This document shows positions 7,198 to 52,551 of a stretch of 64,000 nt of DNA, in pieces. The notes under the pieces are model-generated. The model was not told where the DNA came from. It was given only the letters and a program-made list of their open reading frames with translations, and did no database searches. The position numbers and the translations under genes are program-made. Origin of the DNA: a virus; IMG/VR virus record IMGVR_UViG_3300048672_000512, positions 1-64,000 of that record. The stretch is one strand, 5' to 3'. Numbering within the stretch: position 1 is the first letter of the stretch; the number at the start of each line of letters is the position of its first letter.

Positions 7198-8511
7198 ATG
7201 CCAGTTAAAAGCACAACTAACAATCGAATTCTACCGTCAAATGCAAGAGCAATTGACGTAGCTAAACGAACCATTGATCAGATCATTCCGATTCAGAACA
7301 GGAGATATCATGCTGCGTTTCAAGTTCAAGGTTATGGTGGCGTTTTGTACTCGCGCCTTGAAAGCGGAATACGATGCGCTTGTAAATCGATGGTACACAC
7401 GATATCTTCTAGAATCAATGAAGATGGAAATGCGGACCCTGGCGTTATCAACTCGGTACTCACAGGGCAGGAGTTTGGTGTACGCCGCTATGGTTCGCGC
7501 CAAGCGGATAATCCGGGGTGGCAACTAGCCGATGACGGTAGCTTTGTTATTGACATTCAAACACAGCGTCCGACTCAATCCTCTTTTGATCGTCAAGTCA
7601 ACACACGTTCTGGTAACGCTAACACAACCATATTCGGTTCTCAGTTTGACCGAATGTCAAACGATGCAAGCGATCCAGCGTCGTCAACTATCATATCGGA
7701 TGCAGAAGGTGTAAACGGGCCAACGGACGGTGTGTACTCGCTGGACGACTTAGCTTCAAACTTCGATCGTACGTTGCACGCACACTCTGACATATCCTGC
7801 CCTATCTGCTTAGGAACAGGATACACCGGCGGCTATTCAGTGTACAACGGGTGGCGGCGAGTCTTTACGGCTTTTGAAGACGCTGTAAAGAACTCTGCTG
7901 ATACCTATATAGACACTGTAGAGGACATACCGACTAGCCATGGTATTAGTAGCGAATGGAGCGTAGTGCTGCCGTTTGGTGCTATTGGAGTAGACAGGTG
8001 TTGTGTCTTCAACGGATTGCAACCCTGCACGTCTGTTCAAATATACATTGATGACGTGCGGCTCACTTCGGAGCATCATCTTCTGTCGTTCTGCAATGGG
8101 CGCATGCACACGGTGAAGATTGCCTTTCCTGAAGAAACAACTTGGACTCACTTTGAAGTGCAAGTCAACGTCTCCAGAGATGAGGCTTTGTTTGAGTTGC
8201 CAAAGACAACCAAGTCAAGCATCATGTCGCTTCTGGAAACAACAGATCCGTTTCAGGTTATTCTGTCTCCGATGATACCAAGGTTGCGTGCATTGGACGT
8301 TATCTGCGAGTCTACGCTTGGAAAAACTCTTCATGTCAAAGGGGTGACAAACTTCAATGACAAGAAGGCAAGCATACTAGGATGGGAAGCTGAAGTTAGA
8401 GTTACGCAGCCACATGAACTGATATCCAAGCTACCAAAGCGCCGCACTATTATTCAGGCCCGCCGACCTGCAATGGTCACTGACAACATAACCGGAAACA
8501 AGAGAACATGA
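7198..8511 (+). CDS. Hypothetical protein, possibly a virion neck/head-completion protein
   Basis: 437 aa; RCAC and CPICLGTGYTGGY motifs like those in large-phage structural proteins (function is inference). Confidence 0.5.
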   Translation: MPVKSTTNNRILPSNARAIDVAKRTIDQIIPIQNRRYHAAFQVQGYGGVLYSRLESGIRCACKSMVHTISSRINEDGNADPGVINSVLTGQEFGVRRYGSRQADNPGWQLADDGSFVIDIQTQRPTQSSFDRQVNTRSGNANTTIFGSQFDRMSNDASDPASSTIISDAEGVNGPTDGVYSLDDLASNFDRTLHAHSDISCPICLGTGYTGGYSVYNGWRRVFTAFEDAVKNSADTYIDTVEDIPTSHGISSEWSVVLPFGAIGVDRCCVFNGLQPCTSVQIYIDDVRLTSEHHLLSFCNGRMHTVKIAFPEETTWTHFEVQVNVSRDEALFELPKTTKSSIMSLLETTDPFQVILSPMIPRLRALDVICESTLGKTLHVKGVTNFNDKKASILGWEAEVRVTQPHELISKLPKRRTIIQARRPAMVTDNITGNKRT

Positions 8512-9074
8512 ACCTGTATCGATTACATTCAAACCCATCGTCATTGGTTGGCCATTCAAAGGCAGGTACGGTTCCGGCACTCGGCAACTTAGTAAGATAC
8601 CTCTCAGACGCAACTATGAAAGACTTGCTGGAAAAGATGCGTAATTGTATTCACCAGCTTGCCTACTGGAATATGCGCAGCGAGATCGAAGGAGAACTTC
8701 CTGAAGCGACAAATCCAAATTTTGATGCAAAGGATCCAAAGGACTGGCAAGAACTAAAAGACTCAGAGACTAGCAGCGCAACAACCTACTTTCAACAGTT
8801 AGATGTTATGCTGGACAAGGTCTTGACAAAGAACCAGTTAAAGTCTTACCTGGATGACTACGAGTCCGCAAGTAATAGCAGCCGTAGTTGGGGCGCTCTT
8901 GAAGGCTCTGAAGCAACCATAGACGAGCTACCAGACGTTGTAGCATTTGTTATAAACCACGCACTCGCACAGCTGAACTGGTCAGTGCTAGCTGATGAAA
9001 TCAGAGACAGAGTTGCTGTGGTAAACAACGGGAGCCGTGGCTATGAGTTCAGAGTAGAACCCTCTAGCTGGTGA
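8508..9074 (+). CDS. Hypothetical protein
   Basis: ATGA overlap with the upstream gene. Confidence 0.7.
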   Translation: MNLYRLHSNPSSLVGHSKAGTVPALGNLVRYLSDATMKDLLEKMRNCIHQLAYWNMRSEIEGELPEATNPNFDAKDPKDWQELKDSETSSATTYFQQLDVMLDKVLTKNQLKSYLDDYESASNSSRSWGALEGSEATIDELPDVVAFVINHALAQLNWSVLADEIRDRVAVVNNGSRGYEFRVEPSSW

Positions 9075-9110
9075 CTCGCACCCATTTTTAATTCGACCAT
9101 TACAAGTGTC

Positions 9111-9200
9111 TGCTCGTCGAAACGAAAGCTGGGTCGTAGCTTTGACGGGTAATCGACCAATCCTTGCTGATGACAAATACAGCAGCAACTTCGACCCAAC
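9111..9200 (+). ncRNA. Candidate structured 5' leader RNA (pseudoknot or switch)
   Basis: GTCGA/TCGAC and AAAGCT/AGCTTT stems; loop TGGGTCG complementary to CGACCCA at 9192-9198; TTGCTG/CAGCAA hairpin; no family recognised. Confidence 0.35.
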
Positions 9201-9217
9201 AATAACCCTGGAAAATT

Positions 9218-9910
9218 ATGAGCAATCAAATGGAAATGCTGCGTCGCGTCCTGCGCGCATCCGCTGATCTGACCGCTGCTGCCCGCACGCACTCGGATTT
9301 TGACTGGTTTGTCATTACTTCGCCGCTGACCTGCTACAAAGCAGATCGCCAGAAGAATTTCAAGAAGTACACAATGAAGCCGGCTGGTGAAGGCGAATAC
9401 AAAGCCTTGTGCGGTTTCAAGATGTCGGGTAGCTCCAACGCTATCGTTCTTCGCTATGTGCAAAGCTACGATGACAATGGCGATCCGATCTACATCGATT
9501 TCACCATTCCGATTCGCAAGATGCGTATTGATGCTCCGGACATTCCGGAAAGCGTCATTCGTGAACGCATGAAGAACGGCGAAAAGGTTCTTGCTTGGAT
9601 GGATAGTCAAGCTGCTCTTGGCAAGGGTCGTCGTCCGGCTTGGATGTCGCAGGGCGCAAAGACTCCGACGTCTGAACCGAAGGGCGTTCCGGCACCTGAA
9701 GCTGCCAAGAAGGCTGAGGCTGAACTGCCGCCTTTCGTTCCGAAGCGCAAGGTTCAAGGTCCGACCGACAAGTGGGGCTTCTCGAAGAAGCCGGATGCAG
9801 CTCCGGCCAAGGCTCCTGCTGCAAAGCCGGCAAAGCCCGCCCCCAAGGGTGACTCGTCGCGTGGCGACGATGACGATGACTTCGGCTCGCTTCCGATTCG
9901 CAAGAAGTAA
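9218..9910 (+). CDS. Hypothetical protein with Pro/Ala/Lys-rich tail
   Basis: 230-aa ORF with strongly biased, highly-expressed-type codon usage. Confidence 0.8.
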   Translation: MSNQMEMLRRVLRASADLTAAARTHSDFDWFVITSPLTCYKADRQKNFKKYTMKPAGEGEYKALCGFKMSGSSNAIVLRYVQSYDDNGDPIYIDFTIPIRKMRIDAPDIPESVIRERMKNGEKVLAWMDSQAALGKGRRPAWMSQGAKTPTSEPKGVPAPEAAKKAEAELPPFVPKRKVQGPTDKWGFSKKPDAAPAKAPAAKPAKPAPKGDSSRGDDDDDFGSLPIRKK

Positions 9911-40758: not shown

Positions 40759-40929
40759 TGGCTGAAATCTATGGTTTCCGAAGCACGCTTCCAGTCTTCG
40801 ACTACACCGTGTTTCCTGCTGTTTTTTCATTACAGAATCGACCGGAAACAGAGGTTTCCGGGCCGAGACGTGTATCTGGGTGCAGAAGCGAAAAACCCAT
40901 GAAAATGGCGTGTTTTCTGCGCTTTCTGG

Positions 40930-42222: not shown

Positions 42223-42922
42223 TCCGCGTGCTAGTCTCTGCAAAGCTCCACTGTTCTACGGCAAAGAACTGGAAGGATTCTCGCAAGGAGAATACACGGT
42301 TTTCGTAACGGACATTCGCTACCTTTTGGAAAACGAAAACCTTGTTACTAGCGCAGCGTGGCTAGCTCACAGCTGCCTTCCGTCTAACGTTCGCTACCTA
42401 CATCCTTACCAGTGGCTGCACAGGCTGTACTTAGGTGCGGGTGAGCTATCTGATATTTCAATCAGCGACTTGCATGATCTGCTGACTTCTGAATATATAG
42501 CAGTTGTCAAGACACTAGTCGTAGAAGCTACAGCTGAGTGGTATCTAGCAAACGCGGCAGAGCTTAAGCATCTAGTGCAGGAGTTCAACTGCTCAAGTGC
42601 AAACAGAAGCGCAGCTCGCAGCCGATACCGTACAACCACAAAGCTTCAGTTTGAGTTTGTAGTTACCACAACAATGATAGGCTCTGGTGGCAGGTTTATA
42701 ACCGACTGTACTGAAAAAGAGTATGTAGCTGTTAAACACCTGCAAGACAGCTTTGAAGCCTGCAACGTATCTTTCTACTACAAAGTAGACGCGTGTAACG
42801 TAGTTGTTATCTCTATCAGAAACTCACTAGCAGGAAATACAGCAGTTAGGCTTAGTTCTGTGGGTGGCAAATACAGCAATGACGTGGACTTGACACCATA
42901 CATCGATGACATGAAAAGATGA
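42212..42922 (+). CDS. Hypothetical protein within the modification operon
   Basis: ATG 42212 overlaps the upstream gene; stop overlaps the dpdA ATG. Confidence 0.7.
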   Translation: MASDPRASLCKAPLFYGKELEGFSQGEYTVFVTDIRYLLENENLVTSAAWLAHSCLPSNVRYLHPYQWLHRLYLGAGELSDISISDLHDLLTSEYIAVVKTLVVEATAEWYLANAAELKHLVQEFNCSSANRSAARSRYRTTTKLQFEFVVTTTMIGSGGRFITDCTEKEYVAVKHLQDSFEACNVSFYYKVDACNVVVISIRNSLAGNTAVRLSSVGGKYSNDVDLTPYIDDMKR

Positions 42923-44247
42923 ACAAAAAAGAAAAGGAAGAGCTGCTACGCTCCGGTGTTGGGTATTACCTAGCACCTGCCTGCATAGATAGAATACTGC
43001 CATCGCTTATCAAAGAGGTTGCAGATGGGTCAACAGAGTTGACAGCGTCAACGCAGAAAGAAGGGGCGCTAGCTAAGTACCACCTAACGATGCCTGGAAA
43101 GAGTCTGTATATTGCTTCAGACTCTTACGCTTTGCGAAACACACAGCTTCTGAAATCAAAGAACTTCCACAACTGGCGAGCATTGTCCGACTCACCCTTT
43201 GGTCTGATAAATCACTTTGATAGTCCAGATCGGATTGCAGGTTTCCTGAAGTCTACCAAGTTGATTCTTCAGGACTCTGGTGGTTTTCAGATGGCTACCG
43301 GAAAGACAGACTTTGTGTGTCCTGAGTACGTTCTGGAAAAGCACAGAAACAACGCAGACATCGGAGTGACACTGGATATTCCGATCTACCCGTTCACGCA
43401 TGCTATAACAGCAGAGACAATACCAAGAGTTGCGTCAGTCACTGAAAGAACGAACCGATACTTTCTGAAGTCTGGCTATAGCAGCTTCATGAATCTGAAT
43501 CATGGAAGAAACATCAAGGAGCGTCTGAAGTGGATGGAGAGCACTCAGAAAAAGGCTCCGGGTGTCGCTCTATGCATCGGGGGTTTCATCAGCAACAATC
43601 GCAGAAAGGTGCTACCCAAAGCGTTTGCTGCAACGGTTGTCAAGCTCATTCAAGCGTCTGGGTATAGATACTTTCATGTTTTGGGTGTTAGTACAAGTTG
43701 GCAACAGATCATCCTAGCTTCAATAGCGCACAGGTATAAAGTGCTGATAACCAGCGACAGCACATCCTGGCTTACACTAGCGCGACGCGGCTGCTTGATA
43801 ACGCCTAACTATGACGTGTATCAGCTTCCAAAGTCAAAGCCTGGTCACAAGACAGACAAGCTTTTGAACTGCGTGTGTCCTGCTTGTTCCATCTTTCAGT
43901 ACGAAGCTTTGTACTCGCACAACACGCGGTTTGCTCTTGTGCACAATTTGCTAGCAGCAGACCGAATTGCTTCTCAAATCAACGCAGTTTTTGCTGGCAA
44001 TCCAGACCTGTCTGTAGACTGGGAGTCCAGTCTTGTGAAAGAGAACATGAAAGGCGTTGACGCCTACATAAACGGCGAACGTGTATGGAAGGACACAGAC
44101 GAACTGAAGACCGGAACAACCAAAATTCGAGAGTCGCTGTTCAGCAGCAGCGAAGACTTTGTGCATGCAGATCTGGCAACACAGAAGGCTTCCCTGAACA
44201 GAATTTTGACAGCATACGACAAGTTCTTTGCAGAAAGAGGAATCTAA
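42919..44247 (+). CDS. dpdA: tRNA-guanine-transglycosylase-like protein, probable DNA 7-deazaguanine transglycosylase (DpdA)
   Basis: ILQDSGGFQ catalytic Asp, TLDIP, FHVLG, TSDSTSW, CVCPAC...HN zinc site; next to queD/queE. Confidence 0.8.
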   Translation: MNKKEKEELLRSGVGYYLAPACIDRILPSLIKEVADGSTELTASTQKEGALAKYHLTMPGKSLYIASDSYALRNTQLLKSKNFHNWRALSDSPFGLINHFDSPDRIAGFLKSTKLILQDSGGFQMATGKTDFVCPEYVLEKHRNNADIGVTLDIPIYPFTHAITAETIPRVASVTERTNRYFLKSGYSSFMNLNHGRNIKERLKWMESTQKKAPGVALCIGGFISNNRRKVLPKAFAATVVKLIQASGYRYFHVLGVSTSWQQIILASIAHRYKVLITSDSTSWLTLARRGCLITPNYDVYQLPKSKPGHKTDKLLNCVCPACSIFQYEALYSHNTRFALVHNLLAADRIASQINAVFAGNPDLSVDWESSLVKENMKGVDAYINGERVWKDTDELKTGTTKIRESLFSSSEDFVHADLATQKASLNRILTAYDKFFAERGI

Positions 44248-44248
44248 C

Positions 44249-45463
44249 ATGAGCAAGATGTTTTACGTCGGTCTGGAGCGCTATCAGTCTCGCTACAGCT
44301 ATGATCTTGAGAATTGGACGCGCCAAGCCTGTGGTGAAAACTTTCCGCTTGAATTCGTTTCTGTTGGAGACAGCAAGTCGCTACACGCAATCAGCAACGG
44401 TCAGGTTCTTGACGCGTGTATTCGACCGCTACACGCGCTGATGCAGATTTCTGAGTTGATTCAATACGTGCAAGACGGAAGTCTAACTTCCGACGATCTG
44501 ATCTTCTTTGAAGACATGTACCATCCTGGCTTGGATGGTCTAGCTTACGCTCTTGCTCTGAAACGCGTCAAGCCACTTATCGTAGGTCGCTGCCTAGCGC
44601 AGACAATCGATCCAGACGATTTCACGTCAAACCATCCGGTGCTGCGCAAGTGGATGCCCAAGTATGAAAAGATGGCGCTTGACATCTTTGACGTACTGTT
44701 TGTTGCATCGCATGAAATGGTGAGCTTCATGCGAGCGGCTGGTTGGAACGCGCACGTGCTTGTTACCGGTCTTCCATTCAGCACAAAGTGTGTACGTGAA
44801 GTTGCAAACTGCAATCCTGATGGTATGCAGCCTGAAGGCTTTCACTCGCGCAAGCAGCGCGTGGTGTTTGCTTCGCGTCTTGACTGGGAAAAGCAACCCG
44901 TCTTCTTCCTTGAGGTTGCAAGAACAGTGCGTAAGATAGCACCGCATATCGAGTTTGCTTTCTTATCAGGCAAGCCGTGGTCAAGCAACAGACGGAGCAT
45001 TGAAGTTGAGATCCGCAAGGATATCAATGACGGTCTGGTTTCCATGTACGACAACCTTAGCAAGGAAGCGTACTACGATATTCTAAAAGACTCGCGTGTG
45101 CTGTTCAATTGCGCGCTGCAAGACTGGGTTTCAAACACGGTGTCTGAAGCTGATGCTCTTGGCTGCAATCTGGTGTTTCCTGCCTACCGCTCTTTTGTTG
45201 AGTTGTTTGTGGAGCGACAGTCCTGCCTGTACACACCTTGGAATGTAAAACAAGCAGCGGACGCGGTAATCGTAGCTTGTTGCAAGCCGGATGAAAAGAT
45301 CGGAAGTACGGCCGATATGATGTCAGCAATGACAGCTAGCAGCATGACACAACTTGCTGAGCTACTGCAAGATCATATTCAAGGAGAAGGCTTTTCGCAT
45401 GGAACTACGGTTGCTGACCTTGACAGGATGCATTTTAACCGAGCAGACTGGAGCTACACATGA
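44249..45463 (+). CDS. GT-B fold glycosyltransferase (GT4-like)
   Basis: FASRLDWEKQP and Y..IL...RVLFN.ALQDWVSNTVSEA.ALG....P nucleotide-sugar-binding pattern. Confidence 0.85.
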   Translation: MSKMFYVGLERYQSRYSYDLENWTRQACGENFPLEFVSVGDSKSLHAISNGQVLDACIRPLHALMQISELIQYVQDGSLTSDDLIFFEDMYHPGLDGLAYALALKRVKPLIVGRCLAQTIDPDDFTSNHPVLRKWMPKYEKMALDIFDVLFVASHEMVSFMRAAGWNAHVLVTGLPFSTKCVREVANCNPDGMQPEGFHSRKQRVVFASRLDWEKQPVFFLEVARTVRKIAPHIEFAFLSGKPWSSNRRSIEVEIRKDINDGLVSMYDNLSKEAYYDILKDSRVLFNCALQDWVSNTVSEADALGCNLVFPAYRSFVELFVERQSCLYTPWNVKQAADAVIVACCKPDEKIGSTADMMSAMTASSMTQLAELLQDHIQGEGFSHGTTVADLDRMHFNRADWSYT

Positions 45464-46311
45464 TTCCTATCTATGCAGATACAAATGTAGGGCCGAAGTT
45501 CTACACGCGAGCCGATGCGCTGCTTGTACGCCACACGTTCTTCACTATTCAGAGTGAAGGTCCATTCTGCGGGCGGCCTGCTTTCTTCATTCGCCTGGGA
45601 GGATGTAATCTTGGCGACAAGTCCAAGTACTGTTCTTTCTGTGACTCGGATTTCAGAGCAGAGCATTCCACGTATCAAACCTACCAAGAATTGCTTGACA
45701 AGATTCTTGAAGTAAGGGCGCCGCTTGAGTATGACCCGCTTATCGTGATCACGGGCGGTGAGCCGTTTCTGCAGGCTATACAGCTTCAGCGTTTTGTACG
45801 GCACTTGCATGAAAACTTGGACTGGGTTGAAATTCAATTTGAGTCCAACGGAACAATGTTTTCGCACATCCGCAGCCTACTAGCGCAAGCTGTCTACAAC
45901 TCCGTGTCTGTAGTCGTGTCTCCAAAAGCTGCAATGACGGATGATGGCTTACACTTCACGGGCGACCCTGGAGCTTCCTTCACCGACGCTGAAGAATCAG
46001 ACAGCGCATCTGAAGAAACCTGGTTTATTGCAGACAACCTCTATTACAAGTTTGTGGTTTCTGCAGATCCAACTTCAAAGCATAACCAGTTGCCTGCATG
46101 GGTAGACAGGATTCCGCCAGAGAAGGTTTACATATCTGCTATTGCAGAGTACAGGCGTGAACTGAAGCCTGGAGAAACCGCAAACCTGTGGGATGCGACT
46201 CTGATTGATCAGGCGAGTACTTCCAAGAACTACCAATATGCTGCTGAACTTGCAATGGAGAAAGGATTCAACCTGAGTGTACAGAGTCACCTTCTTTGCT
46301 CAATAGAATAA
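45460..46311 (+). CDS. queE: 7-carboxy-7-deazaguanine synthase (radical SAM)
   Basis: FFTIQSEG, FIRLGGCNL...CSFCDSDF, ITGGEP, FESNGT, VSPK, KFVV, LSVQSH. Confidence 0.9.
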   Translation: MIPIYADTNVGPKFYTRADALLVRHTFFTIQSEGPFCGRPAFFIRLGGCNLGDKSKYCSFCDSDFRAEHSTYQTYQELLDKILEVRAPLEYDPLIVITGGEPFLQAIQLQRFVRHLHENLDWVEIQFESNGTMFSHIRSLLAQAVYNSVSVVVSPKAAMTDDGLHFTGDPGASFTDAEESDSASEETWFIADNLYYKFVVSADPTSKHNQLPAWVDRIPPEKVYISAIAEYRRELKPGETANLWDATLIDQASTSKNYQYAAELAMEKGFNLSVQSHLLCSIE

Positions 46312-46436
46312 TGTATCAAGGATACCAAAGAAAGACAGACAGAAGGTTCTGTCTTGCGTGTGGATGCAACCGTTGGCATTTCAAAACCGAAAATGGCAAT
46401 TGGTATTGCATCGTGTGTTTCCGACTCTTAACCTAA
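46311..46436 (+). CDS. Small 41-aa zinc-ribbon protein (not in the ORF track)
   Basis: TAATG coupled; MYQGYQRKTDRRFCLACGCNRWHFKTENGNWYCIVCFRLLT has CxxC...CxxC. Confidence 0.6.
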   Translation: MYQGYQRKTDRRFCLACGCNRWHFKTENGNWYCIVCFRLLT

Positions 46437-46448
46437 GCGGGACGTCAA

Positions 46449-46814
46449 ATGATCAAGAAGATTTCAACCATGCTACTTCTGTGCGCTACAGTTTCACTAG
46501 CACCAGTTGTGCAAGCTGCAGAGGTTTCCTCAGATATCAATCTGCGCCCTATTGTTAGTACGGCTAGGGGCTTGGGTTATCTGCTTGGCACAAATGAAGA
46601 CGAGCGCAAGCTGTTTTTCGGTTACCTGTACGGAGCTTTAGGCATGGGGAACCATGTATTCTTTTGTCTTCCGGAAACTCCATCGATAAAGAGTATGGGG
46701 CTATTTGCAGTGCGTGCCTTTAACTCCATCCCAGAAGACAAACGGGACGTAGTAGAGGCAGCAGACGCTCTAGCTGTTTATCTGGCACTTCGATACAAGT
46801 GCACAAAGGCGTGA
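46449..46814 (+). CDS. Exported Rap1a/Tai-like (T6SS amidase immunity-like) protein
   Basis: Signal peptide (MIKKI...VQA|AE); GYLYG...FCLP...PE...AA..L..YL..RY.C pattern. Confidence 0.55.
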   Translation: MIKKISTMLLLCATVSLAPVVQAAEVSSDINLRPIVSTARGLGYLLGTNEDERKLFFGYLYGALGMGNHVFFCLPETPSIKSMGLFAVRAFNSIPEDKRDVVEAADALAVYLALRYKCTKA

Positions 46815-46822
46815 ACCTTGTG

Positions 46823-46855
46823 AAGGCTCTGTAGATAACTCTACAGAGCCTTTTT
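46823..46855 (+). terminator. 12-bp perfect hairpin plus T-run, 5 nt before the polymerase ATG
   Basis: AAGGCTCTGTAG-ATAACT-CTACAGAGCCTT-TTT. Confidence 0.7.
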
Positions 46856-46860
46856 AACTT

Positions 46861-49365
46861 ATGACCATGTTTACCGCCTACTTTGAAACTGGACAGCTGC
46901 GCTACCGTAGTGATCTTGAAGTCCTAAACCTTTCTGAGGTGGAAGACTTCTACAAGCTAGTGCCAGTATGTTCTAGAAACTGGAAGTCCTCCGAGTTCCG
47001 TCTTCTGGTTGTTGTGGAAGCTGTAGATCGTCAAGACCTGAAGACAGGAAAGCTTCTGTCTATGGACCTTGAAAAGGAGCGCGGTTCCTCCTACTACGCA
47101 AACACAATGACTGCACTTCTACCTGGGCTGCTTGACGCCTCATGGAAGATGTACACAGACTGGCTTGCAGTAGACAATGAAACACCTGAAGTTTCTGAAG
47201 TAGCTCTTGGTGTTGTCAATTTCAACGCTGCAAAGACGTACACGCTTGAGCCTACAGCAAGAAAGGCGATGCACAAGAAGTTTGCGGATCGTGTTATACA
47301 CGTGATCGATAGCATGAAACCCACGCATGTCTTTGTGTGTGGAGACACTGCTACCGTCAACCTGTTGGAATTGCTATCCGAACAGGATGTTCCTCACTGC
47401 GAAGTGAAGCGTGGCTGGGTTTTTGACCTAACGCACAAGAACCACAAGTTCAAGCTGGTTCCATCGCTGGATCTTGAAACGCTGTACAACCCAAAGGCTA
47501 ACGAGTCTGCAGATGACGACGACGGCGACTCAGACATGGCGGACAAGTACGCAACTGCAGATCTGCTGTACTTTGTAGGTCGCAACCTTGTAAACCTGTT
47601 TGCTGGACGGCACCTGTACTCTCTTAAGAGGCTGCGTCCAAAGGCCGTGTATGTAGACACCGTGGAACAGTTTGACAAGGTCATGGACCTTGTTGAATCT
47701 CCGGACGTTGAATATGTTGGCACAGACACGGAAGGTGCTAGCCTGAATGTAGTGACCAACAAGATATTTTCTGTGCAGTTTGCTGTAGACACAAAGGTTG
47801 GCTATGTCATACCGCTGTTGCATCCAGATACGCCGTTTGATGGAGAAGAGCTGAAGTATGTTTTCAAGCGACTTCGGAAGTTCTTTGGTGCTACCAAAGA
47901 GGCAAGCCTGAAGACGCTGGTGTACATCAACGGCAAGTTTGACCTGCGCTTTCTACGTGTGCAACTAGGCATTCCTGTCATTCTGCATCGCACCTATGAG
48001 GTTAACGCCGGCGAACAGCTTCTGGATGAAAACATTGGCTTGTTTGGTGGTGCTGATTCTGGAGGTCTGCGCTTTCGCAAGGATAACGACAAGGTCCGCA
48101 CCTCGTATCAAGGCCTCATGAATGCTCTGTGCCTGTACGAGAACGACGCTTACTACAATCTGCAGTTTTCAAAAGAAGACCGTGGAAACATGGGTGCGCA
48201 ACCGTTGAATGATCCAGACGTTCTCTACTACTGCGCGCATGACTCTGTAGCTGTCTTAGCCATGGCACGCATGCAGATACGTAGAGCTAAACATACATTC
48301 GTGCGTCCGAACTTTGACAGCAAGAAGCTGGTTCCATATTACAAGTATTTCATTCGGCACGTTGTTCTACAGATGGGGGCTACGGTTCAAGGTCTTTCCT
48401 ACATGGAGCAGAATGGCTCGCCCATTGACCTTGAATACCTGACCATTCTTGCTGGAAAGAAGTCACCTTTGCTTGCTGAAATCAATCAGCTGAACAACGA
48501 CATGCGGGCCTTCCCTAGCGTAGCTGCAACAGAGAAGCTGCTGTTGAAGTCTATGGGGCGCTCCGGTGGTGGTTTGCTTGGTTCCGTTGGAACTGCTGGC
48601 ATGTTCGACATATCTAAGCGGGATCACTTGCACAAGCTGTTCTACGAAGTGATGAAGCTTAAAGTGGTGTCGCATACAGGCGGTGGTGCCGTAGCAATCG
48701 ACAAAGAGTTCATAAACACCTACAGCGCGGATTACAAGGAAGTAGCAACCTTTGGTCAGTACACCAAGGTAACGAAGCTGATGTCAACCTACGTCAAAGG
48801 GTGGTTGAAGAAGATTCAAGTTTCGGTAGACGACCTAGCTAGAAGTGTTCTGAGTCCTGGCTTTGGATTCTTTACCATTGTCACTGGACGCCTGAACAGT
48901 TTCAAACCTTCTTTGCAGAACGTACCGTCACGCGGAGGTACGGCAAAGATAATCAAGCGAATGTTTCGAGCACCCAAGGGTTTTCTTAGCGTCAATTTCG
49001 ATTACAGCGCGAATGAAATCCGTGGCGGCGCTATCCTTGCAAAGGATGATAAGCTAGCCGGAGCTTTTCAAGATGGTATCGATCTACGTAAACAGTGGAT
49101 TGTAAAACCTTCAGCTGAACTTGCAGCCAGTCTAGCAACGCGCGGTGACGTCCATATTCAGAACGTCAAACGCCTGTTTGGTGTTTGGGTTGCAAAGTCC
49201 GACCCTCGCCGTAATGCCATTAAGGCAGTTGTGTTCGGTCTTATGTATGGAAAGGGTGCAGGAACCCTCGGTAAGGACTTGAAGAAGGACGCTCTGAATG
49301 AGGCTATGGATAAGCGTCGCAGTATCGTCAAACAGATACGGGAACTTGAAAAAGAAGTAAGCTGA
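46861..49365 (+). CDS. polA: Family A DNA polymerase, N-terminal part (UDG-like domain, 3'-5' exonuclease, motifs A and B)
   Basis: ExoI DTEG, ExoII NGKFD, ExoIII YCAHD; TGRLNSFKPSLQN; motif A DYSANEIR; motif B RNAIKAVVFGLMYG. Confidence 0.92.
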   Translation: MTMFTAYFETGQLRYRSDLEVLNLSEVEDFYKLVPVCSRNWKSSEFRLLVVVEAVDRQDLKTGKLLSMDLEKERGSSYYANTMTALLPGLLDASWKMYTDWLAVDNETPEVSEVALGVVNFNAAKTYTLEPTARKAMHKKFADRVIHVIDSMKPTHVFVCGDTATVNLLELLSEQDVPHCEVKRGWVFDLTHKNHKFKLVPSLDLETLYNPKANESADDDDGDSDMADKYATADLLYFVGRNLVNLFAGRHLYSLKRLRPKAVYVDTVEQFDKVMDLVESPDVEYVGTDTEGASLNVVTNKIFSVQFAVDTKVGYVIPLLHPDTPFDGEELKYVFKRLRKFFGATKEASLKTLVYINGKFDLRFLRVQLGIPVILHRTYEVNAGEQLLDENIGLFGGADSGGLRFRKDNDKVRTSYQGLMNALCLYENDAYYNLQFSKEDRGNMGAQPLNDPDVLYYCAHDSVAVLAMARMQIRRAKHTFVRPNFDSKKLVPYYKYFIRHVVLQMGATVQGLSYMEQNGSPIDLEYLTILAGKKSPLLAEINQLNNDMRAFPSVAATEKLLLKSMGRSGGGLLGSVGTAGMFDISKRDHLHKLFYEVMKLKVVSHTGGGAVAIDKEFINTYSADYKEVATFGQYTKVTKLMSTYVKGWLKKIQVSVDDLARSVLSPGFGFFTIVTGRLNSFKPSLQNVPSRGGTAKIIKRMFRAPKGFLSVNFDYSANEIRGGAILAKDDKLAGAFQDGIDLRKQWIVKPSAELAASLATRGDVHIQNVKRLFGVWVAKSDPRRNAIKAVVFGLMYGKGAGTLGKDLKKDALNEAMDKRRSIVKQIRELEKEVS

Positions 49366-49398
49366 GCTACCAACCCAAGAAATCACACGGAGAGTAAG

Positions 49399-50412
49399 AT
49401 GCCAAATGCAGGAAGTCAAACTAGTCAGACTAGTCACGATGTAACGATACGCAAGATGTTGGATGGGTGCGAGCTTCTTGTAGACGCTTACAGCCTGACT
49501 TGCGTGGATCCAGTCGTACCGTCGCCGCACGGAGCCTCCTATATGTTTGTGGATGGCACGTGGGTAGGCGCTAGTACAAGCATAACCGGAACCGTTGGAC
49601 GCAAAGCGCGTGTTATTCCACACCAAGGATCAGCACCGCCGCGTTCAAACATCACAACAGAAGTCCTTGCAACAGGAGCAAATACAAACTGCACCGTTGA
49701 AGTATGTATTCCAGGTCAGCTATGGTGGCATGGTCAGAGCATAGAGTTTGCTATTGAACCGTTTTCAGTTCTTGTTCTATCAATGACTGGTACTGGAAAG
49801 TGCGATCTGAGAATCACTGGAAGTGGCTACCAGTCCGTAACAAGCGGGCTTGGTGGCTCTGCTCGCTACAACGTATCTGCAAACAATCCACGAATCACAG
49901 ACATTCGCTCCGGCCCAGCTGTTCATACGTTCACTGCGGGTCAGGCTGGTATGGTGATTGTTCTGTGCTATGACACAATGCTGATAGTGGGACCACCAAC
50001 AGCACCTGCGGGCACGATAACGCATAGCTTCCAGCCAGTAAGCTCCAGCACATACACTGGATATAAAGGCGCTGCGTCATCTACTACTGTCAAGACGGAA
50101 GACAAGGTAAAGATCAACCTTGATAAGCTACCGTCGCATATTAAAGACAGGTATAACGCTACTATTGTTAGAAAGCTGCAAGAGTACATAACAGCGTACG
50201 AGACTGGATCTGGAATTACGCTTGTGCCAAATACCATGTCAGTAACGCAGAGTAAAGATGACCCGCCTCGCACGTTTCATGCTTCCTTTCGTTCTCATGG
50301 ATACGACAAAGAAGTGTTCAATGGACTAGACGCCTTTCTTCTTGTGAAGGGTTATGCAGGAAGTAGATACGACGTTGCTTCCTCCCTGATAGATCTTGAC
50401 TTTGAGGTGTGA
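49399..50412 (+). CDS. Hypothetical protein inserted between the polymerase halves
   Basis: 337 aa with GGAG SD; no intein or homing-endonuclease motif recognised. Confidence 0.75.
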   Translation: MPNAGSQTSQTSHDVTIRKMLDGCELLVDAYSLTCVDPVVPSPHGASYMFVDGTWVGASTSITGTVGRKARVIPHQGSAPPRSNITTEVLATGANTNCTVEVCIPGQLWWHGQSIEFAIEPFSVLVLSMTGTGKCDLRITGSGYQSVTSGLGGSARYNVSANNPRITDIRSGPAVHTFTAGQAGMVIVLCYDTMLIVGPPTAPAGTITHSFQPVSSSTYTGYKGAASSTTVKTEDKVKINLDKLPSHIKDRYNATIVRKLQEYITAYETGSGITLVPNTMSVTQSKDDPPRTFHASFRSHGYDKEVFNGLDAFLLVKGYAGSRYDVASSLIDLDFEV

Positions 50413-51354
50413 ATGACAACCGAAACAGAGTCACCTAAAGCAAAACTCGCAAGGCTGCGCACCGAGCTGAAAGACATAGACAGCAAGATAGAAGAGATTG
50501 AGGCAAAGGATTGGAAAGCGTTTGCGCAAGAAACCGTTGAAAAGTTCTATGGTGAGTTTGACGCTACGCATCACTATCTGGAAAACTGCGCTGACCACAT
50601 TCTGACAGACATGCACATCATGTCTCCAGTCGGGCGACGACGTAACATGTGGCGAGTTCTTACCGGGCGTCCCGGTATTCTTGCAGCTGCGCAGCGTCGA
50701 GGCAAGAACGCTCCGATTCAAGGCTTTGCTTCCGAGCTTGGTTGTGCAGCGGGTACGCTCATTATTGAGGAGCTTTATCTCTTTCTTCGACGCACACGTA
50801 AGTGGAATTGGCAGTTTCTGAATGACGTTGGTTTGTCTGTGATCGGCTACCTTCTGTCTCTGTACAACCGAGCGGTTCATGACGCTAACTATTACACGGT
50901 TCGCTACGAAACCATGATTCCACACATTCATATCATGCAGCACCAAGCCACCTACGGCGTAGCTCGCTGGTATGAAGAAAACTTTGACATCAAGTTCAAC
51001 GTAGACCCGGAAATCGAACTTGACTTCTCGGCTACTGCCGACAAGACGCACACATGGAACTGGGCGCTACACGGAACCGATGGCATAAAGACCAGTGGTG
51101 ACAGCCTGGATACGTGCCTGTTCAATTCTCTTGTTGATCAAGTGAAGCTGAAACAGATCACCAGCTCCAAGGAACTCAAGAGAATTGTGAAGGTGATCTG
51201 TGCACCCTGGGAAGATCAGGAAATGCGTGACTACCTGAATCAGAAGTACCCACTGTTGGGTGTCACTGATCTTGATACACAGATTGAAGGTTTCCTTGAA
51301 TCGTTCAACGCAAAGATTCAGGCCTTCTGTTCCGAACCAAAGAACTTTGAATAA
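50413..51354 (+). CDS. polA: Family A DNA polymerase, C-terminal part (motif C)
   Basis: SPVGRRR, QRRGKNAPIQGFASE, motif C VHDA; own SD GAGGT. Confidence 0.9.
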   Translation: MTTETESPKAKLARLRTELKDIDSKIEEIEAKDWKAFAQETVEKFYGEFDATHHYLENCADHILTDMHIMSPVGRRRNMWRVLTGRPGILAAAQRRGKNAPIQGFASELGCAAGTLIIEELYLFLRRTRKWNWQFLNDVGLSVIGYLLSLYNRAVHDANYYTVRYETMIPHIHIMQHQATYGVARWYEENFDIKFNVDPEIELDFSATADKTHTWNWALHGTDGIKTSGDSLDTCLFNSLVDQVKLKQITSSKELKRIVKVICAPWEDQEMRDYLNQKYPLLGVTDLDTQIEGFLESFNAKIQAFCSEPKNFE

Positions 51355-51365
51355 GGAACCATGAA

Positions 51366-51536
51366 ATGTCTTTTCTTGACAACCTTCTCGGGTTAATCTT
51401 CCTCTCCGTTTTCTTTACGGTTTGGACGCTAGGCTTTGTAATCGCCAAGGGTTTTGCGGCATTCGCCTGTATTTTCCCGCCGTATGCCCTCTACGTTGTT
51501 GTGGAGTACGCATGGAATCATGTCCAGCTTTGCTGA
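51366..51536 (+). CDS. Small 56-aa membrane protein (not in the ORF track)
   Basis: MSFLDNLLGLIFLSVFFTVWTLGFVIAKGFAAFACIFPPYALYVVVEYAWNHVQLC; AAGGA SD. Confidence 0.65.
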   Translation: MSFLDNLLGLIFLSVFFTVWTLGFVIAKGFAAFACIFPPYALYVVVEYAWNHVQLC

Positions 51537-52551
51537 TGTAATAATCAACCAGCTGGAAAGGTATGCAGGTGAAAAGAAGATTGGCACAAAGTTCTCTTTC
51601 ATTCTGTGTCCTTTCCATTCTGAGTCAACACCGTCTGGTCGCATACGTCACGACCCTTCAAAAGACGGAATAGGTAACTTCAAGTGCTACGGGTGCGGGC
51701 GCAGAGCCAGCTGGAATGAGATAGCTGCAGCGTTAGGCTTACAGCAATTCAAGTCTGCAGGCGAAACGCTAGATGGAAGCGTACCGCACATTGACACCAC
51801 AAGGTACAAGGAACAATTCCTAGGCACCAGCACAGCATCGAACGTAGAACATGAAGATCTTCTGATGTTTGATCTGAGCCATTCTCTAGCAGAAGAGCTT
51901 GGGTTGAAAGACAATCAGTGGAGAGGGTACGATATAGACTGGTTGCGTGAAGCCGTGCAAGCTCGAATCTGCTACGCAGTAAAGGCAGAGCGTCACTATC
52001 TGTGGCTTCCAGTGATGATCAACTCAGAGGTAAAAGGCTACATCAAGGCTCAGTTTCACAAACCGTACTCCAAGAAAGTGCCTTCGTACCTGAACGCTCC
52101 TGGAAGCTGGTCGCTGACACACGGATTATTTCCTTTCGATCTTGCAGTCAGCACGATGCGAGAGCTGAACAGGAAAACAATGGTGCTGGTTGAGGGTCCG
52201 CGTGACGCGCTGCGACTTGTTCACTTTGGCATTCCTGCTGTATGCATTCTTGGTACGCATTCGTGGACGGATGCTAAAAGCAGGTTGCTTGAATTTGCGG
52301 GTGTTGAACGCGTAGTTCTAATGATGGACGGTGACGATGCCGGGCGTAACGCAACGTACCTGCTAACTAACGGGCACTATCCAGAGTCACCAGAGCAGAA
52401 AGTGTTCAACGGATTGGAGTCCGTGTTTGATCTGAAGACAGTGCGCCTATGGAACTTTGATGTACCTGAAGACTTTCCTGAGAAAGCTTTCGATCCCGGA
52501 AACATGCCAACCTCGCTTTTGAGAAAAGTAAAAGCGAACATGCTTGTTTGA
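51520..52551 (+). CDS. DNA primase (zinc finger plus TOPRIM)
   Basis: CPFH...H...CYGC; VLVEGPRDA; MDGDDAG. Confidence 0.85.
   Translation: MSSFADVIINQLERYAGEKKIGTKFSFILCPFHSESTPSGRIRHDPSKDGIGNFKCYGCGRRASWNEIAAALGLQQFKSAGETLDGSVPHIDTTRYKEQFLGTSTASNVEHEDLLMFDLSHSLAEELGLKDNQWRGYDIDWLREAVQARICYAVKAERHYLWLPVMINSEVKGYIKAQFHKPYSKKVPSYLNAPGSWSLTHGLFPFDLAVSTMRELNRKTMVLVEGPRDALRLVHFGIPAVCILGTHSWTDAKSRLLEFAGVERVVLMMDGDDAGRNATYLLTNGHYPESPEQKVFNGLESVFDLKTVRLWNFDVPEDFPEKAFDPGNMPTSLLRKVKANMLV

Follow-up and report, generated by a model that had tools for sequence, protein, structure and literature searches.

The family B DNA polymerase gp43 is split at the finger tip in the T4-related Aeromonas phages 25, 44RR, 31 and 65 and in Acinetobacter phage 133, according to Petrov et al. 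(2006 and 2010), whose findings are recounted in PMC3061061 and PMC2988022. These accounts give gp43A/gp43B spacers of 2 bp to 3 kb, with a seg-like homing endonuclease gene in one gap and an untranslated spacer in 44RR, and report that the phage 25 subunits co-purify and are active, with no splicing (PMC3061061, PMC2988022). Here we describe a family A polymerase (PolA) encoded by two genes within a 64,000-nucleotide (nt) window, positions 1 to 64,000 of IMG/VR virus record IMGVR_UViG_3300048672_000512. The record is 178 kb long, about 75% complete, and comes from an uncultured giant freshwater phage. We consider it likely that the replicative polymerase of this phage is made as two polypeptides that re-associate without covalent joining, giving an active two-subunit PolA whose junction has collected cargo.

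By analogy, this polymerase is the family A counterpart of the split T4-like gp43. As in gp43A/gp43B, the break falls at the tip of two antiparallel fingers helices, the product comes from two cistrons, relatives carry an unbroken gene and no splicing appears to be involved. However, the enzymes belong to families A and B, whose fingers are not homologous, and the hairpin broken here is a lineage-specific insert between helices O1 and O2 rather than part of the core fingers, and is known from sequence and models. The fingertip split, documented and tested in family B phage polymerases, would therefore extend to family A. As natural fingertip splits are already known in family B, the novelty is less than was implied by the original prediction, which was made from the sequence of this stretch.

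Other two-part enzymes resemble the locus in some respects. An engineered Pfu PolB, split by accident at an AUGA near the finger tip, forms a stable 1:1 complex with wild-type kinetics (PMC3061061). Three lineages related to our phage (L006, L012 and P0039) share with it a −1 ATGA overlap and coupled translation, but the Pfu split arose in the laboratory, in a family B enzyme from an archaeon, and the window halves lie 1 kb apart. In Aeromonas phage Aeh1 (nrdA-a/mobE/nrdA-b) an essential gene is likewise fragmented by an inserted gene and its product reassembled without RNA or protein splicing (PMC3045599). Assembly of Aeh1 NrdA is helped by terminal tails at the break that arose with the mobE insertion (PMC3045599). 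In our locus, by contrast, the helices are already present in unsplit relatives, the intervening gene is no recognisable homing endonuclease and the enzyme is different. The jumbo phage PhiKZ has a replicative polymerase that is a stable 1:1 complex of two gene products, DNAP-N and DNAP-C (PMC13648687), but this is a family B enzyme from another phage lineage. The closest layout within family A is that of MEP401-type OM43 phages, in which PolA occupies two open reading frames (ORFs), one with the exonuclease and the N-part of PF00476 and one with the C-part, with a small ORF between, an arrangement widespread in related metagenomic genomes (PMC10580990). These are small podoviruses unrelated to the jumbo clade, and the study left an intron open and gave no analysis of break point or assembly. 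A limited literature search found no paper on the split in the jumbo-phage clade described here.

At our locus three ORFs follow one another on the + strand in one reading frame, with TGA as both separating stops. The first (46861..49365, 834 amino acids (aa)) is the polA N-subunit gene. It encodes an N-terminal domain, the 3'-5' exonuclease, the thumb, palm motif A (FDYSANE), fingers motif B (FGLMYG; RRNAIKAVVFGLMYG) and the first hairpin helix, and ends in TGA 37 aa past FGLMYG, close to the 35 or so originally given. A 33-nt spacer (49366..49398), with GGAGAG at 49389-49394, leads to the ATG of the second (ORF2, 49399..50412, 337 aa), so that ORF2 fills nearly all of the gap, as had been noted. 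The third (50413..51354, 313 aa) is the polA C-subunit gene, encoding the return hairpin helix, the remaining fingers with NAPIQG (residues 99-104), palm motif C (VHDAN, with VHDA at residues 155-158) and the C-terminal helices. The separate ribosome-binding site claimed for it is present: a Shine-Dalgarno-like GAGGTG (50404-50409) lies within the 3' end of ORF2 and is followed by the ORF2 stop TGA, which abuts the C-subunit ATG (together 50404..50412).

The Pfam profiles agree with this division. The N-half matches positions 26-232 of the 381 in DNA_pol_A (PF00476; E 2.8e-29, 102.7 bits, cut-off 34.3) as well as the domain for the 3'-5' exonuclease (PF01612); the C-half matches DNA_pol_A positions 236-308 with 25.2 bits, under the curated cut-off of 34.3 when taken alone. 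The two genes therefore hold consecutive pieces of one domain which, together with the ORF calls, bears out the coordinates first proposed for the split. In motif C (window 50875-50889, C-half residues 155-159) the invariant Asp is kept and the usual following Glu is replaced by Ala; VHDAN is found across the clade, in split and unsplit relatives alike, including cultured unsplit phages.

The sequence of the locus is identical in a Logan contig with a depth of about 60, probably from the source sample, and that contig has no alternative joint. A low-coverage assembly error is thus unlikely. A sequencing-run search with the locus listed one DNA run (probably the same sample) and no RNA run, which has no bearing on expression. 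No terminator-like or promoter-like site above shuffled expectation was found between or within the three genes, and no notable direct or inverted repeats flank the insert.

Unsplit relatives show what has been broken. The replication genes of our phage resemble those of the jumbo phages Burkholderia BCSR5 and BcepSaruman, Achromobacter Motura and Ralstonia phiRSL1, with polymerase amino-acid identities of 35-37%; a megablast search of the locus against phage records gave no match. The polymerase is a single coding sequence in BcepSaruman (1056 aa) and BCSR5 (1075 aa), with small genes and a primase downstream, as in the window. The window halves align end to end with both proteins, and the break falls within a region that is present in the unbroken proteins too and lies between motif B and a conserved D-W..AQ..DK segment. 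In structure mapping, N-half residue 807 corresponds to Taq 682 and C-half profile position 37 to Taq 687, so about 63 residues (N 808-834 and C 1-36) stand in for four Taq residues (683-686), which we take to be the O1-O2 helix loop of the fingers.

An AlphaFold2 (AF2) model of an unsplit metagenomic relative, P0018 (1096 aa, mean predicted local distance difference test (pLDDT) 89.5), has a helix at 787-815, a turn at 816-818 and a second helix at 819-841, right after motif B, which ends at residue 783. The local pLDDT of this hairpin is 82-92, and the model superposes on Klenow and Bst (template modelling score 0.77-0.78, target-normalised) and on Pol theta. The N-half helix at residues 803-834 (49267..49362) is homologous to the first P0018 helix, and the C-half helix at residues 8-36 (50434..50520) to the second. 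As split forms end 33-46 residues past motif B, their breaks map onto or next to the P0018 turn. On these models the break is the turn of a helix-turn-helix insert in the fingers, an antiparallel two-helix hairpin. The continuous coiled-coil insert expected of unsplit homologues is thus there, as a helical insert in the alignment and a helix-turn-helix in the P0018 model. Judged from the aligned sequences, the hairpin pre-dates the split, as unsplit relatives have it, and was not introduced by insertion.

The split is not confined to our phage. When the N-half's polymerase part was used as query, 64 metagenomic relatives of bimodal length were recovered: 43 have an unbroken polymerase (about 990-1220 aa, or shortened at the N-terminus), 16 end 33-46 aa past motif B and 5 end within motif B. 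Searching with the C-half added another 11 C-halves that stand alone, 217-314 aa long and 38-85% identical. A candidate twelfth (P0014) was rejected as an N-truncated fragment of an unsplit polymerase, and a related-locus search of viral contigs with the C-half found none.

The arrangement of the halves differs between lineages. In L006/L007/L008, L012 and the P0039 contig they are adjacent, their stop and start codons overlapping in a 4-nt ATGA, and the last N-half codons contain GGAGG or GAGGT, which is Shine-Dalgarno-like. The two frames differ in these three lineages, in a −1 ATGA relation, and because the halves are adjacent, out of frame and overlapping they can work only as two proteins. 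In L004, whose polymerase is about 85% identical to that of the window, the N-half ends with the same ...ELEKEVS stop and is followed by a GNAT acetyltransferase gene, an ORF2 homologue (61% identity) and hairpin elements. Its C-half is on the L005 contig, from the same run; the two contigs are unjoined and the spacer of that phage is read only in part. Homology between the window and L004/L005 ends exactly at the N-half stop codon and restarts exactly at the C-half ATG, so the junction behaves as an ordinary intergenic site of cassette exchange. Other cargo lies between the halves in L009 (a 581-aa gene that weakly resembles restriction endonucleases through matches to PD-(D/E)XK-type nuclease families), L013 (two KilA-N paralogues) and L014 (a DUF7487 gene). 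When cargoes were compared with one another, the sets of different lineages proved mutually unrelated; the only related ones were ORF2 with its L004 homologue and the KilA-N pair of L013.

How often the gene was split was examined with a quick, unrooted maximum-likelihood tree of the region upstream of the break, with the split group defined after a first look at the tree. Seven split rows verified by context, set against the 43 unbroken rows, need 4 changes, of which at least 3 are forced by well-supported branches, and the approximately unbiased test rejects a tree that unites the seven (p about 2e-47). All 16 split rows need 11 changes, although some of the unverified short rows may be truncations at contig ends. 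Without a root, fission, fusion of adjacent halves and recombination within the gene are indistinguishable. The sequence comparisons are read most simply as repeated breakage at a single structural point, though this is not proven, and apparently the split is widespread and recurrent in this polymerase clade rather than a singular event. A bolder proposal, to which we give a little less than an even chance, is that the fingers hairpin is a reusable break-and-dock site: the gene would have undergone at least three independent splits inside one stretch of about 10 residues at the hairpin turn, each junction would then have become a landing pad for unrelated cargo, some of it nuclease-like, and the hairpin could be a portable natural split site for family A.

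Both halves appear to be maintained. Between the window and L004/L005 the proportions of nonsynonymous (pN) and synonymous (pS) differences are 0.098 and 0.68 for the N-half and 0.100 and 0.72 for the C-half, with synonymous sites near saturation. As pN is far under pS, strong purifying selection has acted on both halves in their split state.

The halves were also modelled together, using N 470-834 and the C-half with a separate alignment for each, alongside three controls. The interface score ipSAE was 0.82 against 0.02 for the best control, bearing in mind that halves of a split gene can pass through their likeness to solved single-chain PolA, so that a pass reports the ability to rebuild the PolA fold and not binding. 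The mark used is reached by 58 of 80 solved complexes and by 2 of 110 mismatched pairs. At least 95% of contacts recur between runs, and partner pLDDT is at least 81. The pairs of lowest error are between N 707-713, the strand of motif A, and C 160-165, that of motif C.

The terminal helices touch in this model, with contacts along both. Contacts in N 807-833 recur at a spacing of 3-4 residues (L807, A811/L812, A815/M816, I822/V823, I826, L829, V833), and those in C 8-35 are heptad hydrophobics (L12, L15, L19, I22, I26, I29, W34). The heptad helices described on either side of the break are thus evident in the hydrophobics at 3-4 spacing, and the joint modelling of the halves gave the heptad-spaced contacts looked for. 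The original prediction went further and had a coiled coil at the fingers tip zip the halves together. The break is indeed at the hairpin turn and the helices do touch, but they supply only 19 of 123 interface residues in the N-half and 17 of 133 in the C-half (about 15%), the other 85% or so being palm and fingers core, and the claim was overstated. In the models the coiled coil is real, yet it is a minor part of the interface.

These results suggest the following picture. The gene would have broken at the turn of the roughly 63-aa helix-turn-helix insert, with the hairpin serving as a permissive break point. The N-subunit, ORF2 and C-subunit genes are most likely co-transcribed, and translation of the C-subunit is probably coupled to that of ORF2, because its ATG directly abuts the ORF2 stop. 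The subunits would assemble mostly through the re-formed, interdigitated palm, with the motif A strand of one chain on the motif C strand of the other, and through the fingers core, while the terminal helices would add a two-stranded antiparallel coiled coil. ORF2 would be dispensable for joining the halves and simply sit in the resulting intergenic junction. We infer the assembly, activity, co-transcription and role of the helices, the first from the models, with selection on the halves as indirect support.

Comparative evidence puts the break at a single defined structural position where it is repeatedly tolerated. If this picture is right, the junction would be a concrete natural one for engineering a two-piece PolA, for instance for split-protein assays or domain insertion, and natural pairs are at hand in adjacent, coupled and cargo-separated forms. 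It also matters for annotation: as the C-half alone falls under the Pfam cut-off, the two products of such a phage are easily taken for a truncated polymerase and a hypothetical protein.

Some points weigh against a working two-subunit polymerase. Motif C is VHDA instead of the usual HDE, although this has no bearing on the split since unsplit relatives share it. The record is incomplete, and a further polymerase could lie in the missing part. The complex model possibly reflects memory of single-chain PolA structures. Finally, wherever cargo separates the halves on one contig they share a reading frame (the window, 46861/50413; L009, 1580/5786; L013, 4384/8479), and this three-in-three agreement, with a chance of about 1 in 27, is unaccounted for by two subunits.

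The first two of these would fit a decaying polymerase pseudogene, with replication carried out by another polymerase from the missing quarter of the genome or from the host, and motif C lacking its second carboxylate as a sign of decay. The 178-kb record has no PolA or PolB match besides the two polA pieces. We think decay very unlikely, since pN is far under pS in both halves at saturated synonymous sites, motifs A and B are intact and motif C keeps its invariant Asp, and many diverged lineages retain this split, start codons and Shine-Dalgarno-like motifs being present in each. VHDA is also common to unsplit polymerases of cultured, viable phages.

The shared frame would fit RNA splicing, and if anything this is less probable still. 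An ORF2-bearing intron of 1050 nt, beginning with the N-half stop and ending just before the C-half ATG, would be excised, and loss of 49363-50412 does give an in-frame fusion to a continuous polymerase. Group I introns do occur in the clade: Rfam RF00028 matches within motif B of the relative L014 (64.4 bits, E 1.2e-15). The same search, for which the L014 intron serves as a positive control, is blank at E <= 1 across 46000-52500. With 33 nt upstream of ORF2 and 0 nt downstream there is no space for a ribozyme core outside the ORF, and the cargo boundaries are stop and start codons. The ATGA-overlapping halves of relatives, being in different frames, are unspliceable, and L014 combines its motif B intron with a separate split at the hairpin that has its own stop and start. 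The polymerase of L014 (L014:6998-7238 and 7270-9306) is in three pieces: the group I intron interrupts motif B after ...VVFG and is followed by a short exon (VIYGKS, the helix and a stop), the DUF7487 gene and the C-half. Four more relatives, P0017, P0035, P0042 and P0043, stop at VVFG or immediately behind it, and an intron of this kind is probably present in each.

Read-through of the two in-frame TGAs deserves as little credence as splicing. It would give a polyprotein of about 1497 aa that displays ORF2 as a domain at the tip of the fingers hairpin, and it would explain why the three ORFs share a frame, why both separating stops are TGA and why the first TGA is followed by 11 codons free of stops before ORF2 starts; the halves of L009 and L013 are likewise in the same frame. 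Against this, TGA is the commonest stop of the long + strand ORFs in the window (24 of 46), many of them within an ATGA overlap, as is typical of real stops, and no tRNA gene, hence no suppressor tRNA, was found in the window. Recoding of TGA was rejected on the same grounds. Each ORF has its own Shine-Dalgarno-like motif and ATG, and the ORF2 start, MPNAGSQ, is conserved. The L004 gap holds a GNAT gene in another frame together with hairpin elements, and the relatives with adjacent halves are out of frame.

Ligation of the halves by a split intein, which the layout of half, intervening ORF and half recalls from fractured genes (PMC2677866) and which the inteins in neighbouring genes of relatives might seem to favour, is effectively refuted because the sequence leaves no intein parts: against unsplit homologues the N-half can be aligned to all but its last few residues and the C-half from about residue 10 onwards, so that neither an N-intein of about 100 aa nor a C-intein of about 35 aa can fit, no Hint or intein Pfam match is found in the halves, and there is neither a Cys or Ser after the break nor an HN motif before the +1 residue. 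The view that the break carries neither an intron nor split-intein termini thus held on both counts, with Rfam blank and no leftover sequence or Hint match. Two separately translated subunits remain by far the most probable product of the locus.

The cargo gene itself resembles little else. ORF2 has a beta-rich N-part, a Ser/Thr/Pro linker and an alpha/beta C-part, and it starts at its own ATG behind GGAGAG. Its sole homologue is the one at the same junction in L004. A tblastn search against phages gave no match at E <= 1, and Pfam, PHROGs, a word-indexed search, an exhaustive HMMER search and the ESM Atlas gave nothing usable on its identity; no Pfam, PHROG or Atlas match supports a homing endonuclease. 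A match to a 40-residue stretch of a 1781-aa repeat protein (E 4.5e-6) was taken as compositional. The AF2 model has a mean pLDDT of 29.8, too low to be of use, and no paralogue was found in the 178-kb record. Between the window and L004, ORF2 has a pN of 0.26 and a pS of 0.73, and is thus constrained but evolving faster than the polA halves. Most likely it is lineage-specific cargo, one among several unrelated cargoes at the junction.

The hairpin elements in the L004 gap (L004:9927-10069) are of the same type as an intergenic hairpin of the window (40810-40850), TGTTTCC...TTTTTCATTAC...GGAAACA. This looks like a dispersed repeat of the phage group and probably caused the contig break between L004 and L005.

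Inteins and nuclease domains occur elsewhere in these genomes. In L006 and L007 the upstream neighbour of polA encodes 875 aa and has an Intein_splicing match, but in L008 it encodes 639 aa and has none (L006:812-3439 against L008:1520-3439), which indicates a polymorphism for intein presence among near-identical phages. A neighbouring 1261-aa gene has an intein with a LAGLIDADG domain. In P0061 (1221 aa, on a 189-kb contig), an otherwise unsplit polymerase, Pfam AP2 and HNH_3 domains lie between the exonuclease and polymerase domains, probably as an intron endonuclease gene read through by the gene caller or as an in-frame insertion.

Immediately upstream of polA in the window (42919-46311) are genes for a DpdA/TGT-like transglycosylase, a glycosyltransferase-like protein and a radical-SAM QueE-like protein. 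The QueE-like gene is shared with L004 (71% identity), which also has PTPS/QueD-like genes. The DNA of this phage is probably modified with 7-deazaguanine.

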